Shown here: positions 15,811-63,882 of the stretch, in pieces | Position numbering within the stretch: the stretch's first letter is position 1 | How the letters are laid out: each line of letters opens with the position of its first letter | IMG/VR virus record: IMGVR_UViG_3300036773_000146 | Location: 1-64,000 of that record | Origin: a virus | Direction: 5' to 3' (one strand) | Length of the DNA stretch: 64,000 bases | Position numbers and translations under genes: made by a program | Notes under the pieces: generated by a model | What the model saw: the letters and a program-made list of their open reading frames with translations, nothing else | Database searches by the model: none | What the model was told of the DNA's origin: nothing

Positions 15811-15812
15811 CG

Positions 15813-15885
15813 CAGGGATGGAGGGACTCGAACCCCCAACCACCGGTTTTGGAGACCGGCGCGCTACCAGTTGCGCTACATCCCT
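15813..15885 (-). tRNA. tRNA-Trp(CCA)
   Basis: Cloverleaf: AGGGATG/CATCCCT acceptor, CCGGT-CTCCAAA-ACCGG anticodon arm, GGTTCGAGTCC T arm. No encoded CCA end. Confidence 0.95.
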
Positions 15886-16007
15886 CTGATGGCCCCGGGT
15901 TGCCTAGGACCCGAGACCACCACTGTCCTCGCGGATACAGCATCTCGCGACCCGCCAAGAGTGCACCGGCACGAGGGCCGGGAGAGCGTGGCTGACTGTC
16001 GAGACCG

Positions 16008-16079
16008 TACCGCCGGGAGGAATCGAACCTCCGACCGCGCGATTATGAGTCGCGGGCTCTGCCACTGAGCTACGGCGGT
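16008..16079 (-). tRNA. tRNA with CAT anticodon (Met or Ile2)
   Basis: ACCGCCG/CGGCGGT acceptor, CGCGA-CTCATAA-TCGCG anticodon arm, GGTTCGATTCC T arm. Confidence 0.93.
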
Positions 16080-16099
16080 GTTGCGACGATGAGCTTTTG

Positions 16100-16225
16100 T
16101 ACCGAACCGGGGAGTCGAACCCCGCCTGCCCCCAAAGGGGCTGCACACACGTGCTGAACGGCCCGCACTGTCCCTGCGCAAGGACTTGAACTACGACTGT
16201 GCCCGGCCGTCGGGATCGGCGAGTG
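16100..16225 (-). ncRNA. tRNA-like element with a canonical T-arm but a non-canonical 5' part
   Basis: CGGGG-TTCGACT-CCCCG T-arm plus GTTCGGT-A 3' strand. Upstream hairpins do not form D or anticodon arms. Confidence 0.45.
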
Positions 16226-16277
16226 CGCAAACACGTCTCTGTCCGTGCCCTGGCGCCGAGGAGCTACCTCAGCGTTG

Positions 16278-16351
16278 TGGCCCCTGCGGGATCCGAACCC
16301 GCGTCCTTCCGGCTGAGAACCGGACGTCCTCGTCCACTAGACCAAGGGGCC
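16278..16351 (-). tRNA. tRNA-Glu(CTC)
   Basis: GGCCCCT/AGGGGCC acceptor and TCCGG-TTCTCAG-CCGGA anticodon arm. The T-loop TTCGGAT has G at the usually invariant A58. Confidence 0.9.
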
Positions 16352-25025: not shown

Positions 25026-26446
25026 CTCAGCGACGGCGGCCTCAGGCCAGTCCGTCGAGCATCTTCTTCAGCTTCGGATCCTGGGAGAGGCGTTCGATCG
25101 CCTCGTCGAGGGCGTACACGGCGTCGAACATCGCGGCCGTCTCGCCGTCGAGCCGGATGCCGCGCCGGTACACGCGGACGATGTTCTGGAACTCCTGGGC
25201 CTGCTGCTCGGCCGGAGTCATCGCGGCCGGGCCAGGTACTCGAAGAACTCGGCCAGCTTCGGGTCCCGGGAGAGGCGCTCGTACTCGACCTGGACCTGCG
25301 CCATTACGTCCGTGTCGACCCGATGGTCCGGCGCGGTCAGGTAGACCCGCAGGATCGCCTGGAAGCTCAGCGTCTGGCGCTCGGCCGGAGTCAGGCTCTC
25401 GACGGCGCTCACGTCAGGTCCGCCCCTCGGCGCGGCTTGAACTGCGGCGCGTGGTCCTTGAGCGTGAGCTGCACCGTGCCGTTACCGTGCCTGCTGACGC
25501 TGGTGAGATGGCAGCTCCCGAAGGGCAGCAGCACGTAGTCGCCGGACGCGACCTCCACGCTCTGCTTCTCACCGCTCTCCAGGTCTTCGACGGTCACCCG
25601 GAATCCCTTGTCGCTCATCGGCTCCCACTCTCGATCTGCAAGCGCTGGTTCTCCCAGCGGTCGAACACGGTCTGGTTGTCGGCGACCTTGAGGTAGGGCA
25701 GGAAGATCTGCCGCAGGCTGACCATCTCGGTCTCGATGATCGCCGTCTGGGCGCGAACCCAGTCGCGCATGATCGCCCAGGCCACCCGCTCCGCGTGCTC
25801 GCGGGTCTTCTGCTTGGGCGGCAACCGGTCGGCCTTGAGCACGTCGAACACGGCGTCCACCCGCACCGGCAGCGTGTAGTGGAAGACCTCGCCGTCGATC
25901 TGGATGGCGAAGGACAGGCCGATCAGGTGACCGGCGTTGTCGTACTCGGAGGCGATACCACGCGCACCGGCCTTGACGAGGTCCTTAGTGATCGCGGCCG
26001 CCGAGCGGTCCGGCGCCATGCCGGTTGTATAATTCGCTATACTCATCGGACGTACCTCGCGTGCAGGCGGATGGCCTCCACGAGCAGCATCGCCGCGTCA
26101 TGCAGATCCATGATCTCCTCGGCACTCAGTTCGGCGAGCGCCCGGTCGAGCACGGTGCCGTCACCGGAGAGCAGGCCGCGCATCACGTCGGCACCGGCAT
26201 CCTGCACGAGTGCCGAGGACGGACGGGGGTAGCTGGGCATCAGGCCTCCCGGACGCTGAAGTCGTGGCTGCGGACGATCTCCTGGAACTCGTTCTGCGGG
26301 ATCTGGCTGAACCGCAGCTCGGCGTCCTTGCCGAGCAGGGCGTAGGAGTCGGCCAGCTCGCGGGCGATGCCCTCGACGTCGTAGCCGCCGTCCCAGGGGG
26401 ACAGCTCGCGGACGATGAGGATTTCCAGGCCGGAGATGGTGAGCAT
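25026..26446 (-). other. Operon of small hypothetical genes (incl. 25218-25412, 25409-25618, 25615-26046, 26043-26240, 26240-26446)
   Basis: Coupled ORFs after the promoter at 26480-26508 and the start motif at 26452. Confidence 0.65.
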
Positions 26447-29613: not shown

Positions 29614-30210
29614 TCAGACGTTCTGCTTCTCGCCTGCGGGCGCCGGGTCCGGCACCTTGGGGGACTCCTCCCGGCCGTCCCAACCGTCGTCGTGGCACTG
29701 CGGGCACCAGGGATAGAGCCGATTGTGCTGGTGCTCGATCGTCCAGGTGATCAGGATCCAGGCCCAGAAACCCAGCTCGACGACCTCGTAGACGATGAAG
29801 TTCTGCGTGGGCACGCTCAGGGTGAGCACGACCCATCCCACCCAGAACGCCGTCGGCCAGACGGTGATCCGGACTCCCCAGAGATACAGGGTCCGGTCGT
29901 AGATCCGATGCGTCCAGGTCAGCGCCCGGTGGTGCTCCTGAGCCTCCTGGGTGCCGTCCAGCGGCACCTCGTCGATGCAGCGCCAGCAGACGTCCGTCCG
30001 GTGCACGGCCGTGGCGAAGATCGCCGCGAAGAACAGCGCGATCACCAAGCTGCCCAAGGTCATCCGGGCGACCTCGCTGTGCTCCCGCAGCAGCCCGTAG
30101 CCGCTGTCGAGAATGACCGTGACGACGAACCACCAGACGGGGTGGTGGTGCAGCCAGCGGCCGCCCCGGCGGAACGGACCCTCGGGCTGGCCCTGTTCGG
30201 CGACGGGCAT
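29614..30210 (-). CDS. Membrane protein with CxxC motifs
   Basis: About 4 TM helices; CWRC and CPQC. Confidence 0.65.
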   Translation of the reverse strand: MPVAEQGQPEGPFRRGGRWLHHHPVWWFVVTVILDSGYGLLREHSEVARMTLGSLVIALFFAAIFATAVHRTDVCWRCIDEVPLDGTQEAQEHHRALTWTHRIYDRTLYLWGVRITVWPTAFWVGWVVLTLSVPTQNFIVYEVVELGFWAWILITWTIEHQHNRLYPWCPQCHDDGWDGREESPKVPDPAPAGEKQNV

Positions 30211-30644
30211 CAGTCGCTCACCTGCCAGACGGCCTCGACGCGGACCCGGAAACCGAACGACAAGCCGTCGTTGGTGCGCCCGTACAGCTCGACCTCGCGA
30301 TCGGTCGCCCCCTCAACCTCGAACACATCGAAGCCCTCGTAGCTCCCCAGCATCAGGTGATGGCCGATCTGCTTGGCGACCTCCTGCGGAAGGGGGATCC
30401 GGCGCGCGGCCATCTCCTCGGCCGACTTGACCTGCTCGACCTTGAAACCCGCCACGGCGAGGTTGCCGTAGCCGCCATGCCAGTTGCCCCAGTAGAAGCC
30501 CACGCCGTCTTCGGCGTCCGCGTCCGAGACGTAGTCGTCCACGATGAACTCCGCGCCCTTCGGCACGGCGATCGCAGGGTTACACAGATTCACGGTGTTC
30601 TCGATGACACGCGCCAGGGCGCCCTGTTTCATCGGTTCGATCAT
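30210..30644 (-). CDS. Hypothetical protein
   Basis: Coupled ORF. Confidence 0.65.
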   Translation of the reverse strand: MIEPMKQGALARVIENTVNLCNPAIAVPKGAEFIVDDYVSDADAEDGVGFYWGNWHGGYGNLAVAGFKVEQVKSAEEMAARRIPLPQEVAKQIGHHLMLGSYEGFDVFEVEGATDREVELYGRTNDGLSFGFRVRVEAVWQVSD

Positions 30645-30701
30645 GATCAGCCTTTCAACGAGGGAAGGGCGGGGCCGTCATCACGACGGCCCCGCCGGAG
30701 G

Positions 30702-31364
30702 TCACTTGCAGGCCTTGGTCTGGTGTGCGCCGTAGCTGGCCTGCGCCTTGGTGAAACCCTCACCGGCCGACGAGGAGAGCTGCTGCGTCAGGCCGGAGCA
30801 GGAGAACGACGTGTAGTCGAGGTACTGCTGAGCCGACTTCGCGGCCTGCGCGTTGTAGTCCACGGTGAGGCTGTCCACGGCCTGCGTGGCGACGTCCTTC
30901 GGGAACCCCTCGCCCGCCGTGGAGGACAGCTGGCGGATGAGCCCGGCCCGGGAGAAGGCGGTGTAGTTCAGGTACGACTGGGCCGAGCTGCGCGCCTGCT
31001 CCACCTGCGGCGGGTACTGGGGCGCCTCGGTCGTCGGTGCGGCCGCCGGGGTGACGGGCGCGGCCGGAGAGACGCTGTCGGCAGTGCCCGGGAGCTTGGC
31101 CCACTCGCACGTGTACGGGTCCCAGGCCACCGAGCTGCCGTCAGCGGGCGGCGTCGGCGTCCCCTTGGGTTCCGGGCAGACGGAGGTGAGCCCGGTGGAC
31201 GGGGCGGCTGCCGGGGTCGTGGCCGGAGTGCCGCCACCACCGGTGACGCCCACGACGATGCCGAGGACGATGAAGCCGCCGACGATCGCACCGGTGATCT
31301 TCAGAGCCCGGTGCTTCTTCTTGGGCGCGGGAGCCTGCGGCGACGGGGGATAAACGTTGGTCAT
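30702..31364 (-). CDS. Ltp-family superinfection-exclusion membrane protein
   Basis: N-terminal TM helix, Pro/Thr linker and two Ltp repeats (QA..SA..YL.YT.FS..GL..QLSS.AGEGF...A..A). Confidence 0.88.
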   Translation of the reverse strand: MTNVYPPSPQAPAPKKKHRALKITGAIVGGFIVLGIVVGVTGGGGTPATTPAAAPSTGLTSVCPEPKGTPTPPADGSSVAWDPYTCEWAKLPGTADSVSPAAPVTPAAAPTTEAPQYPPQVEQARSSAQSYLNYTAFSRAGLIRQLSSTAGEGFPKDVATQAVDSLTVDYNAQAAKSAQQYLDYTSFSCSGLTQQLSSSAGEGFTKAQASYGAHQTKACK

Positions 31365-31662
31365 GGATCTGCTGCTTTCTGTCGGTAGTGCAAGTGGATC
31401 AAAAAGTGAAAGTTATGAGCGCCACCAGGCGGTGACCAGGTGCCCGATCAGCCAGACCAGCACCACGGCGGCGAGGACGAAGCAGAGGAACACCCAGTCG
31501 TTCACCCGGGTCAGTCCTGCTCGACGGGCAGCAACGGCTCAGCTTCGACGTCGCGCAGGTTCTGGGCCAACATCCGGGCCGCGAGGTCTCCCCGGCCGGT
31601 GCCACCCCGGGAGAGATTGGTGATCTCCTGGTCGCTCTGCTCCAGGACGGTCGCGCGGCGCA

Positions 31663-32097
31663 TCAGTTCTCCTCGGGAAGGGTGTCGCGCTCGGGCAGCT
31701 GGTCGTTGCCCAGCTCACGGTCGCGCAGCTCGGCGCGCACCAGGACGAGCTTCTCGCGGTGGATCCGGCGGGTGGCCTTGTAGCAGGCGCGGTGGTCGAT
31801 CGCCTTGAGCAGCTCGCGCTCCAGGTTCTTCAGCGAGGCCGTGCTGGAGATCGCGAACCTCGTGATCAGCGCGGACCGGCGCTCGGACTCGTCGAGCCGG
31901 GCCCGGCCGTGCAACTCGGTCATGAGCAGGCTGTACTTGGCCTTGGGCTCGCGCAGGGTCATCGAGCTGCCGCCGCCGTGGCGGCGAATCACCTGGACGT
32001 TCGAGTCGAGCAGCAGGCCCAGCGTGCGCTCGGGCATGGTGGCGTACCGGGCCGCGTAGTCGGCGAGGTCGAGGATGAACGGCGGGTGGTGCAGCAT
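31663..32097 (-). CDS. Hypothetical protein
   Basis: Start motif at 32104. Confidence 0.7.
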   Translation of the reverse strand: MLHHPPFILDLADYAARYATMPERTLGLLLDSNVQVIRRHGGGSSMTLREPKAKYSLLMTELHGRARLDESERRSALITRFAISSTASLKNLERELLKAIDHRACYKATRRIHREKLVLVRAELRDRELGNDQLPERDTLPEEN

Positions 32098-32131
32098 GTC
32101 GGACCTCCGGTGCGGTCTGTTGAACTGACAA

Positions 32132-41237: not shown

Positions 41238-41555
41238 TCACGAGAGCCTCCAGCTCGGGCGGAAGTCGGGGTGGTGCGGCCAGGCCATGACCATGTCGTC
41301 GAGCACGTCGCGGTAGGCCATGCGGACCATGTCGTTGGCCAGCGTGAGGTCGGCCTCGGCGCGCTCACCGCCTAGCTCGGCCGACGAGAGCCAGGGGAAC
41401 AGCTCCTTGGCCGTGGGGCCGCCGAGCAGCTCGTAGCGCCGGGCCCGGTCGAGTGTGCGGCGCTTGGCCTTGGCCTGGACGAAGTGTGCTGTTCGGTCTT
41501 CCTCGTCGAGCCGCGCGGCGATGAAGTCGATCTTCTCCAGGTAGTCCTCGCTCAC
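41238..41555 (-). CDS. DUF6221-like protein
   Basis: FIAARLDE...WPHHPDFRPSWR. Confidence 0.65.
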   Translation of the reverse strand: MSEDYLEKIDFIAARLDEEDRTAHFVQAKAKRRTLDRARRYELLGGPTAKELFPWLSSAELGGERAEADLTLANDMVRMAYRDVLDDMVMAWPHHPDFRPSWRLS

Positions 41556-41811
41556 CGTTGCTCCCGATAGACGTGCGGGCGAATGCCGCTGTGCTGCTGC
41601 GCGAGTTCCTGATTGAGCCGCAGCACCGTATCGACCCACTCGAAGACGTCGTGGGTCTCCAGGTGCTGGCGCAAGATGGCCTTAAGCCATTGCCCGACCT
41701 GCGGCGCGCCATCGGCCCGGATCGGCGGGCGCTGCCGCTCGTAGGCCTCCTGGCTCAGGACCCAACCGCAGCCGTCGACCGGGCACTCGTAGACGGGGAT
41801 GTTCAGCATGC

Positions 41812-42234
41812 TCACGGTCGCCAGCTCTCCTGGTAGTCCGGGTGGTGGGCCCAGGGCAGCGCGATCACCTGGACCGCCAGCTCCAGGGAGTCGGCCTTGA
41901 CGCTCCACGGCCGGTCCCCCGCGAGCGTGTAGTCCTCGCGGTAGTCGATCGCGTTCCTCCGCGCCTCGGCGTACAGCTCGACGAGCCTGCGCTTGGCCGC
42001 GAGGTCTTCCAGCACACGCTGCGGATCCTGGCTGGCGAAGAACTCGACGTCCGCCGGTTCGTACCAGGCCTGCCCCGTGTCGCGGGAGAAGCGGCCGTGG
42101 AAGAACGAGTCGAAGCGCGGAACCTCTCCCTCCTCGTGCGCGGCGCCCAGCGGCTTGACCGCGAGGGCCAGCCGCTCGGCGTGGTCGAGGCGGGCCAGTA
42201 CGAAGGCGACCAGCGCCTCGGCGCCGGTGCTCAC
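41812..42234 (-). CDS. DUF6221-like protein
   Basis: FVLARLD...DP.RVL.D..AKRRLV...LPWAHHPDYQESWRP. Confidence 0.75.
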   Translation of the reverse strand: MSTGAEALVAFVLARLDHAERLALAVKPLGAAHEEGEVPRFDSFFHGRFSRDTGQAWYEPADVEFFASQDPQRVLEDLAAKRRLVELYAEARRNAIDYREDYTLAGDRPWSVKADSLELAVQVIALPWAHHPDYQESWRP

Positions 42235-55484: not shown

Positions 55485-55513
55485 ACACTACCTACCCGAT
55501 CAGGTAGTGTCAA
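55485..55513 (-). promoter_or_regulatory. Palindrome-containing promoter (consensus -35)
   Basis: TTGACA-N17-TAGTGT; the palindrome is shifted to fill the spacer. Confidence 0.8.
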
Positions 55514-56109
55514 CCCCGGGAGGCAGACCACCTGTCAAGAGCCTGCCAGAGAGCCATCTCTCGGCCCCAGGTGGTGTCGATGACGTCCAGCGTGGCCGCC
55601 TGGTCGAGGTCGCGCACGGCCGCCGAGGAGACGTGCTGGAGCATGGTTTCCGTGGTCCAGCGGCCGCCGGTGACCACCACGCCGTCTTCCTTGGTCAGCG
55701 GCTCGTGATGGACCAGGCTGTCCAGGACAAGCATTCCGGCGCCCTCCAGGTGACGCCGAAACTCCAGCAGCTCCGTGCGCGCCAGGTACCCGCTGACGAA
55801 CGCGCGCTGCTCAACCAGGGTGTCGTTGATCCACCAGCGGCCGCCGGGCTGACTCTGGTCGGTGAAGAAGCCAGCCTCGTTGGCCCGCGCCAAATACGGC
55901 AGCAGGGACGTCGTCTCGTGATCCGGCACGTCGTACCCGCTCGGATGCGCCCCCAGCTCACCCCGAGCCCAGCGGGCGCCGCGCTCACTCAGCTCGGGCA
56001 AGGTACGGGCCCGGCACCACTCCCGGCGCAAACCTGCGTAGTAACGCATGTCATCGACCCCGACGACATCGAGCACATACCTGATCTTCCTCTTGAGCAT
56101 CGACAACAT
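55510..56109 (-). CDS. DUF6919-like protein
   Basis: LARAN.AGFFT..SQPG...QRA.V.G...D..WGR motifs. Confidence 0.6.
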   Translation of the reverse strand: MLSMLKRKIRYVLDVVGVDDMRYYAGLRREWCRARTLPELSERGARWARGELGAHPSGYDVPDHETTSLLPYLARANEAGFFTDQSQPGGRWWINDTLVEQRAFVSGYLARTELLEFRRHLEGAGMLVLDSLVHHEPLTKEDGVVVTGGRWTTETMLQHVSSAAVRDLDQAATLDVIDTTWGREMALWQALDRWSASRG

Positions 56110-56953: not shown

Positions 56954-57022
56954 GGCTACCTCCTGAGGATCAAACGTGAGGGTAGGTTACCCCATAGCCT
57001 ACGGGGGCAGTACCATACGGTC

Positions 57023-57295
57023 ATGACCTACGACTCTGAGCGTGATGACGCCCCCAGCTACGAGGGCGAGGTGACCGAGGAATCAACCCGGCTCCGGCCC
57101 CGTACGTGGGCTGCGCTGATCGCGCTCGGGGCCGAAGGCATCTCCCTGCTGATGGGCAACTACCTGATCTCCGTCGGCCTGATCGTCTGCTACGTGGCCT
57201 GGATGTTCCTGCGGGACGCCCTGCGCCGCCGACGGCGAAACCGGGACTGGAACACCGTGGCCAACAACGTGATGGAGGGGGACGAGATCCGATGA
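57023..57295 (+). CDS. Small 2-TM membrane protein (first gene of the TraB-like operon, probably leaderless)
   Basis: TACCAT-N6-ATG; two hydrophobic segments; ATGA overlap with the next gene. Confidence 0.7.
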   Translation: MTYDSERDDAPSYEGEVTEESTRLRPRTWAALIALGAEGISLLMGNYLISVGLIVCYVAWMFLRDALRRRRRNRDWNTVANNVMEGDEIR

Positions 57296-58044
57296 CCGAG
57301 CACCAGAACCAGGCGGCCAACCTGCCCGGTGCCAAGGGCGTCGCGTGGGTGTGCTTTCTATTCGGCACGGTCGTGAGCGTGGCGTTCAACGTCATGGACT
57401 CGTTCATCCCGCCGGTCGGCGCACCTGCTGGCTGGACGCCAGGCCTGTGGGTGATCGTGTTCGCCGCGACGTGGCCCCTAGCACTGATCGGCTCGGTTGA
57501 GCTGCTGGCCCGGCTGGGCTGGAGCGACACCATCTTCGCCAAGATCGTGCGCTACGGGGTGATGAGCGCCGTGGCGGTCTTCGCGGCCGTTATCTCCTAC
57601 CAGCACATCCGCGAAGTCCTGCTCTCCTGGCGCTACAACGAGCTGTCCGCGAACGTCGGCCCGCTCGTCATCGACGGCCTGATGATCCTGGCTGGTTACG
57701 CCATGGTCATGGGGTCGAAGAACGGCGAGGCCAAGCCCTCACCGAAGACCTCTACCCAGGCCGCGCCGGAGCTTCCGGCCAAGTCCGAGCCGGGTCCGGC
57801 TCTGGGCGACATGCTGAAGCCCCTTCCGGTCCAGAAACCGCCGGTGCGCAACCGGACCAACGGGATCAAGCCCGCCCAGGCTCGCCGATCGGCTGGGCCC
57901 AGTACTCAAGACATCGTCAGCACCCTGCGCAAGCGCGGAGACGTCCCCACCAAGCGGGCGATCGTCGCTGAGTTCGGCGTGGGCTCGCTGAAAGCCCAAG
58001 AAGCTCGCAATCTGCTCAAGAGCGACGAAAAGGAGGAATTGTGA
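57292..58044 (+). CDS. DUF2637/Spd-like multi-TM membrane protein with a C-terminal HTH-like tail
   Basis: 3-4 TM helices, A..ISY.HI...GPLVIDGL motif and a PTKRAI...GVG...A tail. Confidence 0.7.
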   Translation: MTEHQNQAANLPGAKGVAWVCFLFGTVVSVAFNVMDSFIPPVGAPAGWTPGLWVIVFAATWPLALIGSVELLARLGWSDTIFAKIVRYGVMSAVAVFAAVISYQHIREVLLSWRYNELSANVGPLVIDGLMILAGYAMVMGSKNGEAKPSPKTSTQAAPELPAKSEPGPALGDMLKPLPVQKPPVRNRTNGIKPAQARRSAGPSTQDIVSTLRKRGDVPTKRAIVAEFGVGSLKAQEARNLLKSDEKEEL

Positions 58045-60050
58045 GCAAAGGCAAGAACTCAGTTTTCGGCATCGCCACCGGCGTCGCTCTCTCCCAGGGC
58101 CTGCCCGGCTTCATGAAGACGTTCCGCCGGTGGTCCTTCCGGTTCCGGCGCGTGCTCACCCCGGTGTGGACGGCCTTCCTCGTCTACCTAGTCGCCGTCG
58201 TCTGGCGCTGGCAGATCCCGCAGTGGTGGCCGGTGGTCCTGGTGCTGCCGCTGCTCGGCGTGGGCCTGGCCTGGGGTGGCCCGCACCTGAGCGAGCGCTG
58301 GTCCCGGGTGGTGATGAAGCTGGTCCCCGACGGGCTCGACAAGGGCCAGGACGGCATCCTGGACCGGCTCACCGAGCGGCTGTACCTGGCCATCCTGCTG
58401 AGCTACACCGGCGCCTACCTGGCCGTGCGGATCGTAGGCGGCGCGAGCTACGTGTCCGGCCTGCTCTGGCAAATCGGGCTGGGTGCCTTCGGGGTGACCT
58501 ACTGGTACCACCGCCGGGTGCGCAGCTTGGGCAAGGCGAACAAGTACGTGAAGAAGTGGGCGCGCTTCGCCGACCGCGAGACCTGCCCGCCGACGCTGAT
58601 CTCGCTGGTCGGCTCGAAGGTCGTCAAGCACGACGTCTCGCCCAACGGCAAGGCGATCACCCTCACGATCAAGCTGGCCGAGGGCGTCACCGCCGACCGC
58701 ATCGGTCACATGGCCGAGTCGCTGGACTCCTATTTCAACCTGCGCAAGGGCGCCACGACCATCACCGAGTACAAGGACCAGTCCCGGTATGCGGTGGCGA
58801 AGTTCGTGCCGAAGGACCCGTGGGAGGACAAGATCGAGCACCCGCTGCCCGGTCCGGACAAGATCAGTCTGGCGAGCAGCGGCGGCCGATTCTCGATGGG
58901 CATCTATGCGAACAGCGACGAGCTGATCTACCAGCTTCAGCACACGCTGCTGTGCGGCACCAACGGCTCGGGCAAGTCCGGCTGGCTGCACTCGCTGATC
59001 GCCTGGCTGGTCCCGTGCCGGGATGTGGTCCTGCTGGGCATCGACATGGCCCAGGGGGCGACCCTGAACGTCTGGCGCAAGACGTTCGCCCTGCCGATCG
59101 CCACGGACGTGGACAGCGCTCTGATCATCCTGGAGAAGGTCTTCGCGGTGATCAAATATCGCGAGGGCGTGCTGAGCAAGGCGAGCGAGGAGGACGACGA
59201 CGCGGCCGACTCGTTCGTGCCGTCGAAGAAGACCCCGTGGATCGTGCTGATCATCGAGGAGTTCCCGGACCTACTGGCCGAGGCCAAGAACACCGAGCGG
59301 TACGACTCCAAGGGCAACGTGATCGGGAACATGTACGACCTGCTCGTGCTGCTGCTCGGCCGGATCGCGAAGAAGGCCCGTAAGTGCGGTATCCGGCTGG
59401 TCTTCGCGACCCAGAACGGGACCAAGGTCGACACGGGCTCGAAGGAGATGCAGGGCCAGCTGAAGGCCACCGTGGGCCTGCGTCTGGACCAGAACCAGTC
59501 GAAGAACCTGTGGGGCGGCGGCAGCTTCGCTGGGCCCGGCTGGAACTCCACCGATCTGGGCCTGGGCGAGTTCCTGCTCCGCGACGAGGACCACTCGGTT
59601 CCGGACAAGGCCAAGGGGTACTGGGTCGACAACGCGGCCCGCCGCAAGATGGTCTCCGACAACGTGGGCCCGAGCGGTACCCGCGAGGTCTACCTGGAGC
59701 CGGACGCATGGTCTCTGCTGATGAGCGAGACCATGGGCCTGGACGTGGAGGCCGACGTTCCCGAGGCCGAGCGGACCGAGGCCGACGATCGCCGGGACCG
59801 CGTCGTGCGATACCTGGAGGACCACTGGACCGAGTACCGCAACGGCGTGAAGGCCCAGACCATCAGTGACGACCTGGAGATCCCGACCTCCACGCTCTAC
59901 CGGGATCTGGACGTACTCCGGAGTGACGACCCGGGCCCGTGCCGGGTCCAGGTGCTGAAGAAGTGGTACTACCCGGCGGGGAAGGCTCCCACGGAGTCCG
60001 GCCCGGCCCCGGTCATGGCGTCCATCCAGGGCGAGCAGACCGGCGGCTGA
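58041..60050 (+). CDS. FtsK/SpoIIIE-family DNA translocase, actinomycete TraB-like
   Basis: N-terminal TM helices, Walker A GTNGSGKS, Walker B IIEE, RKCGI.L..ATQ and a C-terminal wHTH (ISDDLEIPTSTLYRDLDVL). Confidence 0.85.
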   Translation: MSKGKNSVFGIATGVALSQGLPGFMKTFRRWSFRFRRVLTPVWTAFLVYLVAVVWRWQIPQWWPVVLVLPLLGVGLAWGGPHLSERWSRVVMKLVPDGLDKGQDGILDRLTERLYLAILLSYTGAYLAVRIVGGASYVSGLLWQIGLGAFGVTYWYHRRVRSLGKANKYVKKWARFADRETCPPTLISLVGSKVVKHDVSPNGKAITLTIKLAEGVTADRIGHMAESLDSYFNLRKGATTITEYKDQSRYAVAKFVPKDPWEDKIEHPLPGPDKISLASSGGRFSMGIYANSDELIYQLQHTLLCGTNGSGKSGWLHSLIAWLVPCRDVVLLGIDMAQGATLNVWRKTFALPIATDVDSALIILEKVFAVIKYREGVLSKASEEDDDAADSFVPSKKTPWIVLIIEEFPDLLAEAKNTERYDSKGNVIGNMYDLLVLLLGRIAKKARKCGIRLVFATQNGTKVDTGSKEMQGQLKATVGLRLDQNQSKNLWGGGSFAGPGWNSTDLGLGEFLLRDEDHSVPDKAKGYWVDNAARRKMVSDNVGPSGTREVYLEPDAWSLLMSETMGLDVEADVPEAERTEADDRRDRVVRYLEDHWTEYRNGVKAQTISDDLEIPTSTLYRDLDVLRSDDPGPCRVQVLKKWYYPAGKAPTESGPAPVMASIQGEQTGG

Positions 60051-60346
60051 CCCCCGTCCGCACCGTCAGCGCCCCCACTCGCCTCGTGCGCGTGGGGGCG
60101 CACTCGTGTGCCCGTCCACCTGCGCGCCTGCGGCCCCGCGCGTTTACACACAGCGTTATGTATCACGGGTGTGCGAGCACCTAGCGCCACGCATTCTCAC
60201 GCTGGGTGCGCCCTCGCGCGTAACGTGCGCAGGCGCGCGAGAGGGAATCTTACCCCGAACGGCCCGATGATCATGTTTTCGCAGGTCACCCCACCTCTAT
60301 GGCCTTCTCCAGCGTCCTGCCCTTTTCCCACCGTTCCCACACGCCA

Positions 60347-60380
60347 GAAGGCCCCGATGGGAGTAGCCATCGGGGCCTTC
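60347..60380. terminator. Terminator hairpin
   Basis: GAAGGCCCCGATGG...CCATCGGGGCCTTC. Confidence 0.65.
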
Positions 60381-60593
60381 GTGGTGACGCTGTGTGAGGA
60401 GATCAGAGGGTGTGGGCGCCGCACGGGAAGAGCCGGGTGGGGTGCCAGACCTGCCAATGGCCGCCCTTGGCGATCCACAGGCCGTCGTCGCGGTGGCACA
60501 CGGGGCACCGCTGCTCGTGCCGTTCTACCGCCGCGACGAGGTCTCTCTCGGGGTCGGCGCTCATGGCAATGCCGTGGTCTTCGGTGGCGATGC

Positions 60594-60920
60594 TCATGCC
60601 CTCTCCGTCCAGTTCAGCTCGTAGCGCTCGGGCCCGGTCTGGTGCAGAGTCCCACCCAGGCCCAGCGCCGAGTCCGTCAGGCTCAGGACCGCCTCGGCCA
60701 GTCTCACCAGCGGTACCCGCTGCGGGTCCACGGGCACCTGGGCCCAGACGACCTGCGGGCCCGCGATCCCCAGGACCATGTCCGCCATGGTGTGGTACCG
60801 GAACATGGGACCGGAGTCGGGCTCGGTGTCCTCGTCGATGTCCCCGATGTACTCGCGCAGCTTCTGGTACCGCTGGGCCTCGGCGACTAACAGGACCCGG
60901 ATCGCATCGGGCTCGGACAT
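60594..60920 (-). CDS. Hypothetical protein
   Basis: GGAGGAG RBS. Confidence 0.65.
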   Translation of the reverse strand: MSEPDAIRVLLVAEAQRYQKLREYIGDIDEDTEPDSGPMFRYHTMADMVLGIAGPQVVWAQVPVDPQRVPLVRLAEAVLSLTDSALGLGGTLHQTGPERYELNWTERA

Positions 60921-60959: not shown

Positions 60960-61664
60960 TCAGGCCAGTACCGAGGCCAGTCCCACCCACCAGGGACCAC
61001 CCTGGGCCCAGACCGTGAGGGCACCCAGGACTCCGACGAGACCACCCAGGCCCAGGGTCACCGCGCCCTCGCCGATGTTGATCCAGGCCCACCGCGAGTG
61101 GTCCTTCAGGCGCTTGTTCTCGTGGTGGGCTCCGACGCGGAAACGGGCCCGGCGCGGTACCAGCCAGACCGGTCCCCAGCGCTTCTCGGCGCGCTTCCAG
61201 AAGGGCGCCCAGAACGGGATCCCGCCGAGGGTGATGGCGTCGCCCCACAGGTGCGCGAAGTGCCCCACCACGACCGCCAGGGCGGCCCACAGAGCCCACG
61301 CGGACGCCGGGGTGGCCAGGACGCCCAGGAAGGTCGTGAGGCCCATCAGGACGCCCCACAAGGCCGTGTGCGTCAGGGTCCGGTGGCCCGGGTACATGCC
61401 GCCCCGGTCCTTCGGCGTCTTGGTTGCCTCGTAGACGATGATGGAGAGCTTGTTGATCAGCCAGGCCAGGATCCAGGTGACCGGCCCCAGCAGCTTCGAG
61501 GCCTTGGCGCCCGGCATGTCGAGGTCCGGCAGGAGCGCGCCGATCCCGGCCACCGCGACGAAGGCCACCGTCACGAGGATGTTGTTACCCGACGGGTGCG
61601 GGATGACAGGGGCGACGGCGAGCGCGGCCGCGTACCCGGTGAGTTGATGTCCGGTGTGTTCGAT
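60960..61664 (-). CDS. YdjM-like membrane-bound metal-dependent hydrolase
   Basis: H..TG...LLPDLD...HRTLTH...H...D..T..G motifs; apparent ATC start (see findings). Confidence 0.8.
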   Translation of the reverse strand: MEHTGHQLTGYAAALAVAPVIPHPSGNNILVTVAFVAVAGIGALLPDLDMPGAKASKLLGPVTWILAWLINKLSIIVYEATKTPKDRGGMYPGHRTLTHTALWGVLMGLTTFLGVLATPASAWALWAALAVVVGHFAHLWGDAITLGGIPFWAPFWKRAEKRWGPVWLVPRRARFRVGAHHENKRLKDHSRWAWINIGEGAVTLGLGGLVGVLGALTVWAQGGPWWVGLASVLA

Positions 61665-63621: not shown

Positions 63622-63882
63622 TCAGGCGCGAGCCCGGGAGAGGGCGCGCCGCTCGTCTTCGGTGAAGCCGCCGAAGACACCGTCGTCGAGACCGTTGTCG
63701 AGTGCGAACGCCAGGCATTCCTCGCGCACCGGGCAGCGCGCGCAGACGGCCTTGGCCTCGGCGATCTGCCGCTCGGCCGGACCGACCTCGGAGATCGGGA
63801 AGAACAGCTCGCCGTCCTCCCACTGGCAGGCGGCGTCCTGCATCCAGCGCACCTGGCGCATGTCGAACTCGAACGTGAACAC
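63622..63882 (-). CDS. whiB: WhiB-family Fe-S transcription factor
   Basis: W...AAC...D.ELFFP...AKAVCARCPVREECL..AL....GVFGG.TE.ERR. Confidence 0.95.
   Translation of the reverse strand: MFTFEFDMRQVRWMQDAACQWEDGELFFPISEVGPAERQIAEAKAVCARCPVREECLAFALDNGLDDGVFGGFTEDERRALSRARA

Follow-up and report, generated by a model that had tools for sequence, protein, structure and literature searches.

A three-gene cassette with a TraB-like ATPase, a DUF2637 membrane protein and a conserved downstream site in a Bxz1-like phage genome: a candidate system for DNA movement without virions

Does a phage that encodes its own virion also carry machinery with which its DNA could move without one? The question is raised by three overlapping plus-strand genes at positions 57023-60050 of a 64,000-nucleotide (nt) window, the first 64 kb of the complete 149,735-bp IMG/VR record IMGVR_UViG_3300036773_000146 (G000; terminal repeats, 67% G+C); positions refer to this window unless another sequence is named. 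When genes were called by third-position G+C, nearly all of those in the window fell on the minus strand, including every neighbour of the three. The three genes, here termed the cassette, encode a small membrane protein, a membrane protein of family DUF2637 and a membrane-anchored ATPase with affinity to the TraB proteins of Streptomyces plasmids, here termed the pump. The first and second gene overlap by ATGA, the second and third by GTGA, which bears out the translational coupling that an earlier note, made from the sequence alone, had assigned to this operon, and which resembles the coupling in spd operons (PMC4447253). The cassette is also, as stated there, the sole multi-gene plus-strand run in the window; another lies outside it, at 100.4-104.7 kb of the genome. 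We consider transfer of phage DNA across a membrane or septum by the cassette to be the best single explanation of this locus, and we hold it tentatively.

The third gene (58041-60050, plus strand) encodes a TraB-like, membrane-anchored ATPase of the FtsK/SpoIIIE family with 669 amino acids (aa), as judged from Pfam, NCBIfam, alignment, AlphaFold2 (AF2), Foldseek and a tree. The Pfam match (FtsK_SpoIIIE, E 6e-12), hydropathy and the AF2 model (mean pLDDT 78.7) agree with the earlier description of an FtsK/SpoIIIE ATPase with N-terminal transmembrane (TM) helices and a C-terminal winged helix-turn-helix (wHTH) domain. Hydropathy and AF2 place three or four TM helices in the first 177 residues (within 8-177), followed by a beta domain (193-255), the ATPase (283-541, with Walker A at 306-313 and Walker B at 406-407) and the wHTH (580-645). 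The latter is built as helix-helix-helix-strand-strand, was modelled with pLDDT values of 80-90 and matched HTH_11 and HTH_20 weakly; homologues of the pump carry HTH families as well. The pump thus has the architecture of TraB: one FtsK/SpoIIIE ATPase domain, in which both Walker motifs are intact, between a membrane anchor at the N-terminus and a wHTH at the C-terminus.

Among curated NCBIfam models, plasmid_TraB was the best for 26 of the 26 aligned members of the pump family, EccCa matching 20 and FtsK 10 of them. The pump itself scored 17.6 bits against the model for chromosomal FtsK (NF007615, cut-off 1566) and 14.4 bits against EccCa (cut-off 509), and its single ATPase domain excludes the architecture of EccC/EssC, in which two or three such domains stand in tandem. 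The nearest cellular relatives (Cryptosporangium, Kribbella, metagenomes) scored 112-134 bits with TraB over almost the whole length versus 30-52 bits with EccC, EssC or FtsK, and a chain of similarity leads from the phage pumps via these actinobacterial proteins to TraB. In a FastTree tree of 133 proteins, built with the E. coli FtsK motor as outgroup and without actinobacterial FtsK or EccC, the phage family forms a starred clade, and the next enclosing starred clade (65 rows) also contains Tra of the plasmid-phage pFP4; the deep branches of this tree are weak, and the placement near TraB-like proteins is supportive, not decisive. In the ESM Atlas, the neighbours of the pump are FtsK_SpoIIIE proteins from Actinomycetota whose HTH domains are of the IclR or MarR type. 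By hidden Markov models and tree, the pump resembles Streptomyces TraB more than FtsK or EccC, as the earlier note had supposed.

The second gene (57292-58044, plus strand) encodes a DUF2637 membrane protein of 250 aa, identified by Pfam and its AF2 model. It scored 26.9 bits against PF10935 (gathering threshold 22.8), and 14 of 18 positional homologues match DUF2637, with a best E of 9.2e-22. A multi-TM protein with an HTH-like tail had been predicted, and hydropathy and AF2 indeed gave four TM helices, a disordered proline-rich linker and a C-terminal three-helix domain (205-249), modelled as a bundle with pLDDT values of 90-95. The likeness of this tail to GntR is weak and sub-threshold (Pfam E 0.016); Foldseek aligned the tail with 3eet at a root-mean-square deviation of 1.4 Å over 50 columns with a non-significant E-value, and the whole model gave no significant match. 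A tblastn search with the 250-aa protein found nothing in phages or plasmids. With its four TM helices, its HTH-like tail and its place in the pump operon, the DUF2637 protein is a candidate counterpart of SpdB2-type spread proteins, which are four-TM membrane proteins encoded with traB that bind dsDNA and TraB. In two 60-kb phages an HNH_3 endonuclease domain is inserted in frame within the disordered linker (L017:8844-9914 and L020:8887-9915).

The first gene (57023-57295, plus strand) encodes, by translation and hydropathy, a small membrane protein of 90 aa. It had been described as a protein with two TM helices; its membrane nature stood, and hydropathy and AF2 allow one or two helices, a hydrophobic hairpin (residues 27-60) being followed by a basic stretch. 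No family of Pfam or PHROG matched it. Its homologues (52-102 aa) have the motif GLIxxYVxxMFxRD in common and are encoded first in the cassette in most loci.

With a single ATPase, affinity to TraB and a DUF2637 partner of the kind found in the tra operons of SCP2 and pFP4, the cassette has the architecture of actinomycete Tra/Spd modules, as proposed in the earlier note. In SCP2 the DUF2637 gene SCP2.27c lies upstream on the same strand, followed by traB, traX and traA; in pFP4, too, a DUF2637 gene precedes the major tra gene, in the same direction and within one operon. Relatives of DUF2637 were found in 336 plasmid records, 323 of them from Streptomyces.

Downstream of the pump gene, core search and repeat analysis revealed a conserved non-coding cis element (60117-60290, plus strand), a candidate clt-like loading site or operator. 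The intergenic DNA after the pump gene is unalignable overall apart from a conserved 17-nt core, CGTAAYGYGCGCAGRCG (60219-60235). The copy in the window, CGTAACGTGCGCAGGCG, is flanked by inverted arms (GCGCGCCTGCG / CGCAGGCGCGC) and accompanied by a GATCA motif; a larger inverted repeat encloses it, and CGCAGGYS words are found there four times (0.21 expected). GTCTCA words are usually found left of the core, TGAGAC/GAGA words and GAGATCA right of it. We searched 11 complete genomes (about 1 Mb, both strands, at most two mismatches) for the core. It was present downstream of the pump stop codon in 9 of the 11, belonging to two phage types and always in the orientation of the pump gene, within about 260 nt of the stop in 8 genomes and at 835 nt in G010; the only other match in these genomes lies inside the pump gene of G010. 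In G008 the core is found at the same place with a 2-nt deletion, and G007 has no convincing copy. Since this element of primary sequence is kept although the pump proteins are only 40-55% identical, its conservation argues for a protein-binding site. The core motif was absent from pFP4, SCP2, the Streptomyces phage Gilgamesh and two plasmid loci.

The clt of conjugative plasmids, the cis-acting site that the wHTH of TraB binds, lies at the 3' end of traB. In its place and single copy the core resembles clt, and one site per genome would fit clt better than dispersed KOPS. Two other candidates were rejected in the course of this analysis. For an RNA element, no consensus fold (-1.6 kcal/mol) and no Rfam family were obtained. 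The 10-bp palindrome CTGGGCCCAG, three of whose four genome copies lie within 3.1 kb around the cassette (57893, 60738 and 61002; the fourth at 74193), was dropped as it is not conserved in relatives, where a single copy was found in the DUF2637 gene of G001.

A word-indexed search assigned the pump to a family of 52 clusters, all metagenomic and 39-76% identical over the full length, whose longest contigs mostly measure about 146-157 kb or 57-63 kb. A full HMMER scan of 1.8 billion representatives yielded 30 at E<1e-30, with a long tail behind them. In the family alignment, Walker A, Walker B and a 'KKARKCG...QNGT' block are invariant. Two homologues (P0006 and P0054) contain inteins of about 151 aa and 386 aa, both inserted at the same point of Walker A, the P-loop (GTNG / C...HN / SGKS), and these P-loop inteins argue for a working ATPase. 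By megablast and tblastn, no relatives of the pump above 27% identity were found in 50,697 cultured phage records or 72,556 plasmids. A conserved SIQGEQ(T/M) tail (60021-60047 in the window) forms the extreme C-terminus of those members that group with the contigs of 146-157 kb; it is absent from the 60-kb type and could be a docking or cleavage tag.

The survey of related phages detected the family in 20 IMG/VR loci, from which the genomic context of the homologues was taken. The cassette is made up there of a small membrane protein, a protein of 226-356 aa (DUF2637 in 14 of 18) and the pump; all three genes are kept at full length across the family, and the cassette runs against the direction of its neighbours in every locus, L023 and L025 being partial exceptions. 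Because the composition of the cassette matches that of its flanks, as does its codon bias, and 20 independent IMG/VR contigs show the same arrangement, an assembly chimera, considered as a possible artefact from the start, does not account for it. Some 60-kb phages have one extra gene within the cassette. A 134-aa protein of the window (25615-26019, minus strand) is 56% identical to the product of this fourth gene (L036/L037; G003 41411-41848), so that a gene of the cassette in those phages sits elsewhere in the G000 genome.

By its gene content, G000, a phage from soil that infects high-GC Gram-positive bacteria, is a complete, virion-encoding Bxz1-like myovirus. Its major head protein is 58% identical to the counterparts of Gordonia phage Stormageddon, Rhodococcus phage E3 and Bxz1/Myrna-type mycobacteriophages, and genes for a tail sheath and a baseplate wedge are likewise present in the 149.7-kb genome. 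The cassette is carried by a subclade of such myoviruses and by unrelated 60-kb phages: G003, of the 60-kb type, has few genes in common with G000 and a different capsid type, yet its pump is 53% identical. Among the myovirus relatives searched, only G001, with a major capsid protein (MCP) 88% identical to that of G000, has the cassette. Patchy among relatives yet common to unrelated phage types, the cassette is, by this distribution, accessory and horizontally exchanged between unrelated phages. The phages that carry it are apparently virulent. No integrase and no ParB over the cut-off was found in ten cassette-bearing genomes (CheckV completeness at least 99%), and the whole of G000 gave no match to tyrosine or serine integrases, ParB_N or AAA_31 (ParA-type). 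The earlier observation that neither an integrase nor a Rep gene adjoins the cassette was thus extended: integrase and partition genes gave no match genome-wide, and the cassette has no Rep gene or repeat border.

The cassette appears to be equipped with its own expression signals. Alignment with L006-L009 revealed a promoter-like element, TTACCC-N18-TACCAT-N6-ATG (56987-57025, plus strand), whose spacer contains a C4/G5 inverted repeat (56990-57007). In the window, in L006-L007 and in the L008-L009 subgroup, TTAYCC stands ahead of the first gene, followed by 18 nt that contain a C-run/G-run hairpin, by TAYSMT and by 6 nt before the ATG. The pattern TTAYCY-N16-19-TANNNT-N5-8-RTG occurs once in the window, at the cassette start, and at the same place in L006-L009, and in 0 of 13 other loci. 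This suggests that the cassette has its own promoter, the element being unlike the early promoters of the minus strand, which bear a palindrome. Since no Shine-Dalgarno sequence precedes the first gene in the 150-kb type, this gene is probably leaderless. A generic sigma-70 promoter scan and a terminator scan of the region called nothing. A G+C-rich hairpin 19 nt past the pump stop codon (inverted repeat I3, 60069-60101, plus strand; 14-nt arms, 93% complementary) is the likely terminator of the cassette and was missed by the terminator scan because it lacks a T-run.

On the basis of these features we propose the following mechanism. The region is a self-contained cassette that has been exchanged among unrelated, apparently virulent actinophages. 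The small membrane protein, the DUF2637 (Spd-type) protein and the TraB-like hexameric double-stranded DNA (dsDNA) pump would form a DNA-translocation complex in the membrane, and the winged helix of the pump or the tail of the DUF2637 protein would load this complex onto the phage genome at the downstream site. During infection, ATP hydrolysis would then power the passage of phage dsDNA through a membrane or septum, either to the adjoining compartment of the hypha or to a cell in contact with it, and the outcome would be a spread step without a virion. In a more specific form, virulent phages of filamentous actinobacteria would carry a portable 'movement module' that pumps replicated genomes through hyphal cross-walls during lytic infection, comparable in its logic to the movement proteins of plant viruses; to this we give somewhat less credence than to DNA transfer as such, and regard it as rather doubtful.

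Several observations weigh against such a transfer function. As to the earlier claim of a TraB/Spd-like module, architecture, affinity and the clt-like site stood, whereas membership in the TraB family did not: against NCBIfam TraB (NF041214) the pump reached 42.6 bits versus a cut-off of 800 (E 2.8e-11, model positions 130-364). This cut-off is narrow, since the experimentally studied Tra of pFP4 falls below it as well (425.7 bits). The pump is about 26% identical to any plasmid Tra. A motif scan of 185,579 species genomes found no member of the pump family and hence no sign of persistence in cells. The cassette is missing from at least 12 of 13 other large contigs searched in the myovirus clade (MCP 73-78% identical; completeness at least 90% in 11), and no cultured relative has it, so that the basic lytic cycle does not require it. 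The window shows weak direct repeats of the TRS type, and the core could instead be an operator, which is the main alternative for this site; its GT-A-AC centre fits what we take to be the general form of GntR operators. A mycelial host, finally, is an assumption. A cutinase-type LysB was not found in the genome, and its absence is a weak hint against a host with mycolic acids.

Among the other explanations, the one that survives best is that the pump acts as an FtsK mimic on the host chromosome or division apparatus and alters septation, segregation or sporulation, the downstream site being merely an operator. Phage ftsK genes have been classed with whiB, parB and ssgA as development-manipulating genes (PMC10117723, PMC13587820), and a WhiB gene, which recurs in many loci, is located near the cassette at 63622-63882. 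In addition, the top Foldseek match of the pump is the FtsK motor 6t8b (E 1.6e-18), followed by TcpA, a conjugation coupling protein, and then by EccC/EssC, with no TraB structure among the matches. The sequence of the pump, however, has affinity to TraB-like proteins and not to FtsK, and no match to FtsK_gamma (PF09397) was found in it. Its partner DUF2637 is a protein of plasmid transfer regions, and the conserved site is on the phage genome, beside the pump gene. We regard an action on the host as unlikely.

Less probable still is that the cassette acts on incoming DNA at the membrane, either pulling in the remaining genome in a T5-like two-step entry or expelling or blocking superinfecting DNA. 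A membrane-anchored dsDNA motor with a phage-borne predicted loading site in fixed orientation, a predicted promoter of its own on the opposite strand and the accessory nature of the cassette would all be in line with this, and exclusion systems are usually accessory gene sets. Against this reading, cassette and site are located in the middle of the genome (57-60 kb of 150 kb; 38-42 kb of 60 kb) and not near an end, and we know of no entry or exclusion system with a TraB or DUF2637 pair. That the cassette is a selfish remnant of a conjugative element, hitch-hiking in phage genomes without benefit to the phage, would agree with its patchy distribution and exchange between unrelated phages, its own predicted promoter and cis site, and the inteins and HNH inserts that mark a hot spot for mobile DNA, but it is very improbable in view of more than 50 protein clusters with invariant catalytic motifs, three genes all conserved at full length, fixed position and orientation, no integrase, Rep gene or repeat border, and none found in cellular genomes.

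The proposed DNA transfer by the cassette has to be compared with known systems. Both the idea and this kind of system are already known, since the Streptomyces plasmid-phages pZL12 and pFP4 join virion and tra genes and Thoma et al. (2015) had proposed that actinophage-borne homologues of SpdB2 serve to spread the DNA of these phages (PMC4447253). Both pZL12/phiZL12 (Zhong et al. 2010, J Bacteriol 192:3747, cited in PMC3583192 and PMC4487206) and pFP4 (Chen et al. 2012, Plasmid 68:170, cited in PMC6950372) carry tra genes, and transfer of pZL12 is reported to need tra and two adjacent genes (PMC3583192). In pFP4, terminase, portal, capsid and tape-measure genes are found together with integrase and ParA genes. 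The window phage is like both in having virion genes and a TraB-like ATPase in one genome, and pFP4 also has a DUF2637 gene. Unlike the cassette phages, which gave no match to integrase, ParA or Rep and are represented here by a 150-kb myovirus backbone, pZL12 and pFP4 are siphoviruses of 41-90 kb that are temperate or plasmid-borne and have integrase, ParA and Rep. Moreover, the phage pump is only about 23-26% identical to theirs, and pFP4 is without the downstream site. Virion genes and a tra-like cassette are present, but no match to genes for integration or plasmid maintenance was obtained, and the label 'phage-plasmid-like' used in the earlier note is for this reason a poor fit. The combination of virion and tra genes is already described; the present case is set apart by an apparently virulent lifestyle, a myovirus backbone, a pump family that is divergent and a cis site that is sharply defined. 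Separately, a pump-search locus on a Streptomyces anulatus 'plasmid' (L028, NZ_CP108377.1, 89.7 kb) contains a terminase gene, kilB, a Pycsar effector and an FtsK-like gene and is probably a plasmid-phage similar to pZL12.

The cassette is also like the TraB-clt and SpdB3-Spd79-SpdB2 system of pSVH1 (PMC4447253) and the tra region of SCP2, which combine an FtsK-like membrane pump bearing a C-terminal DNA-recognition domain with a four-TM partner (oligomeric in the plasmids), a small membrane protein, translational coupling and a cis site beside the pump gene. It differs from them in that the pump is far below the NCBIfam TraB cut-off and the carrier is a phage. The cis site consists of one 17-nt core with flanking GTCTCA/TGAGAC words, whereas plasmid clt is a plain array of 8-bp direct repeats, and a GntR TraR gene is lacking here, the GntR-like tail being fused to the DUF2637 protein. 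As phage-encoded FtsK/SpoIIIE ATPases, the 'FtsK-like DNA translocase' of cultured actinophages (for example gp10 of Gilgamesh) and proteins of Bacillus SPO1-type phages are comparable, but the pump is only about 26-27% identical to the Gilgamesh type over 41% of the protein, and that type falls on a separate branch of the tree, where the pumps of several 130-kb Streptomyces 'plasmids' group with gp10. In Gilgamesh, 68 kb separate the pump gene from the DUF2637 gene, and no common cis site was found.

Among the neighbours of the cassette, a DUF6919 protein (55510-56109, minus strand; E 3.6e-21) adjoins it upstream and is kept in L006 and L007, not in more distant relatives. On the other side, a perfect 14-bp hairpin (inverted repeat I2, 60347-60380, minus strand) directly after the stop codon of the convergent minus-strand gene 60403-60597 is a likely terminator. 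It is followed by a gene for a YdjM-family membrane-bound metal-dependent hydrolase of 204 aa (60960-61574, minus strand; Pfam PF04307, E 2.4e-15; PHROG hydrolase). A YdjM homologue is encoded 1.3-5.5 kb downstream of the cassette on the opposite strand (convergent) in 18 loci of both phage types and is absent from 11 of 12 complete relatives without the cassette; this absence is confounded with general divergence, because the whole early arm of those relatives differs. Relatives with an MCP identity of 73-78% have none of the flanking early genes in common with G000, and the description of the cassette as a bounded 'island' was given up, as borders cannot be defined.

Other features of the genome include a tRNA cluster (15812-16351, minus strand; Trp-CCA, Met-CAT and Glu-CTC) and four occurrences of GTTACGTAA, on both strands, within 24 bp at L002:17143-17166 (genome 101143-101166). 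This cluster adjoins the other plus-strand gene block of the genome and could be an operator or origin-like site. A 744-aa SGNH/esterase-like protein (L004:4592-6826, genome 128592-130826) is 54% identical to its counterpart at 30008-32119 of G003, and its presence in two otherwise unrelated phage types may reflect a common host envelope.

The short, unique and conserved site beside the pump gene, together with two candidate DNA-binding domains, provides a concrete experimental handle for which no phage culture is needed first. If the function is not transfer, the cassette would still be a widespread conserved membrane machine in two phage lineages. If the pump does move phage DNA, virulent phages of mycelial bacteria would gain a second, particle-free route of spread, and spread by a movement module through hyphal cross-walls would bypass containment at the level of receptors and of development. 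This would change our view of plaque growth, of phage containment by Streptomyces development and of gene flow in soil.

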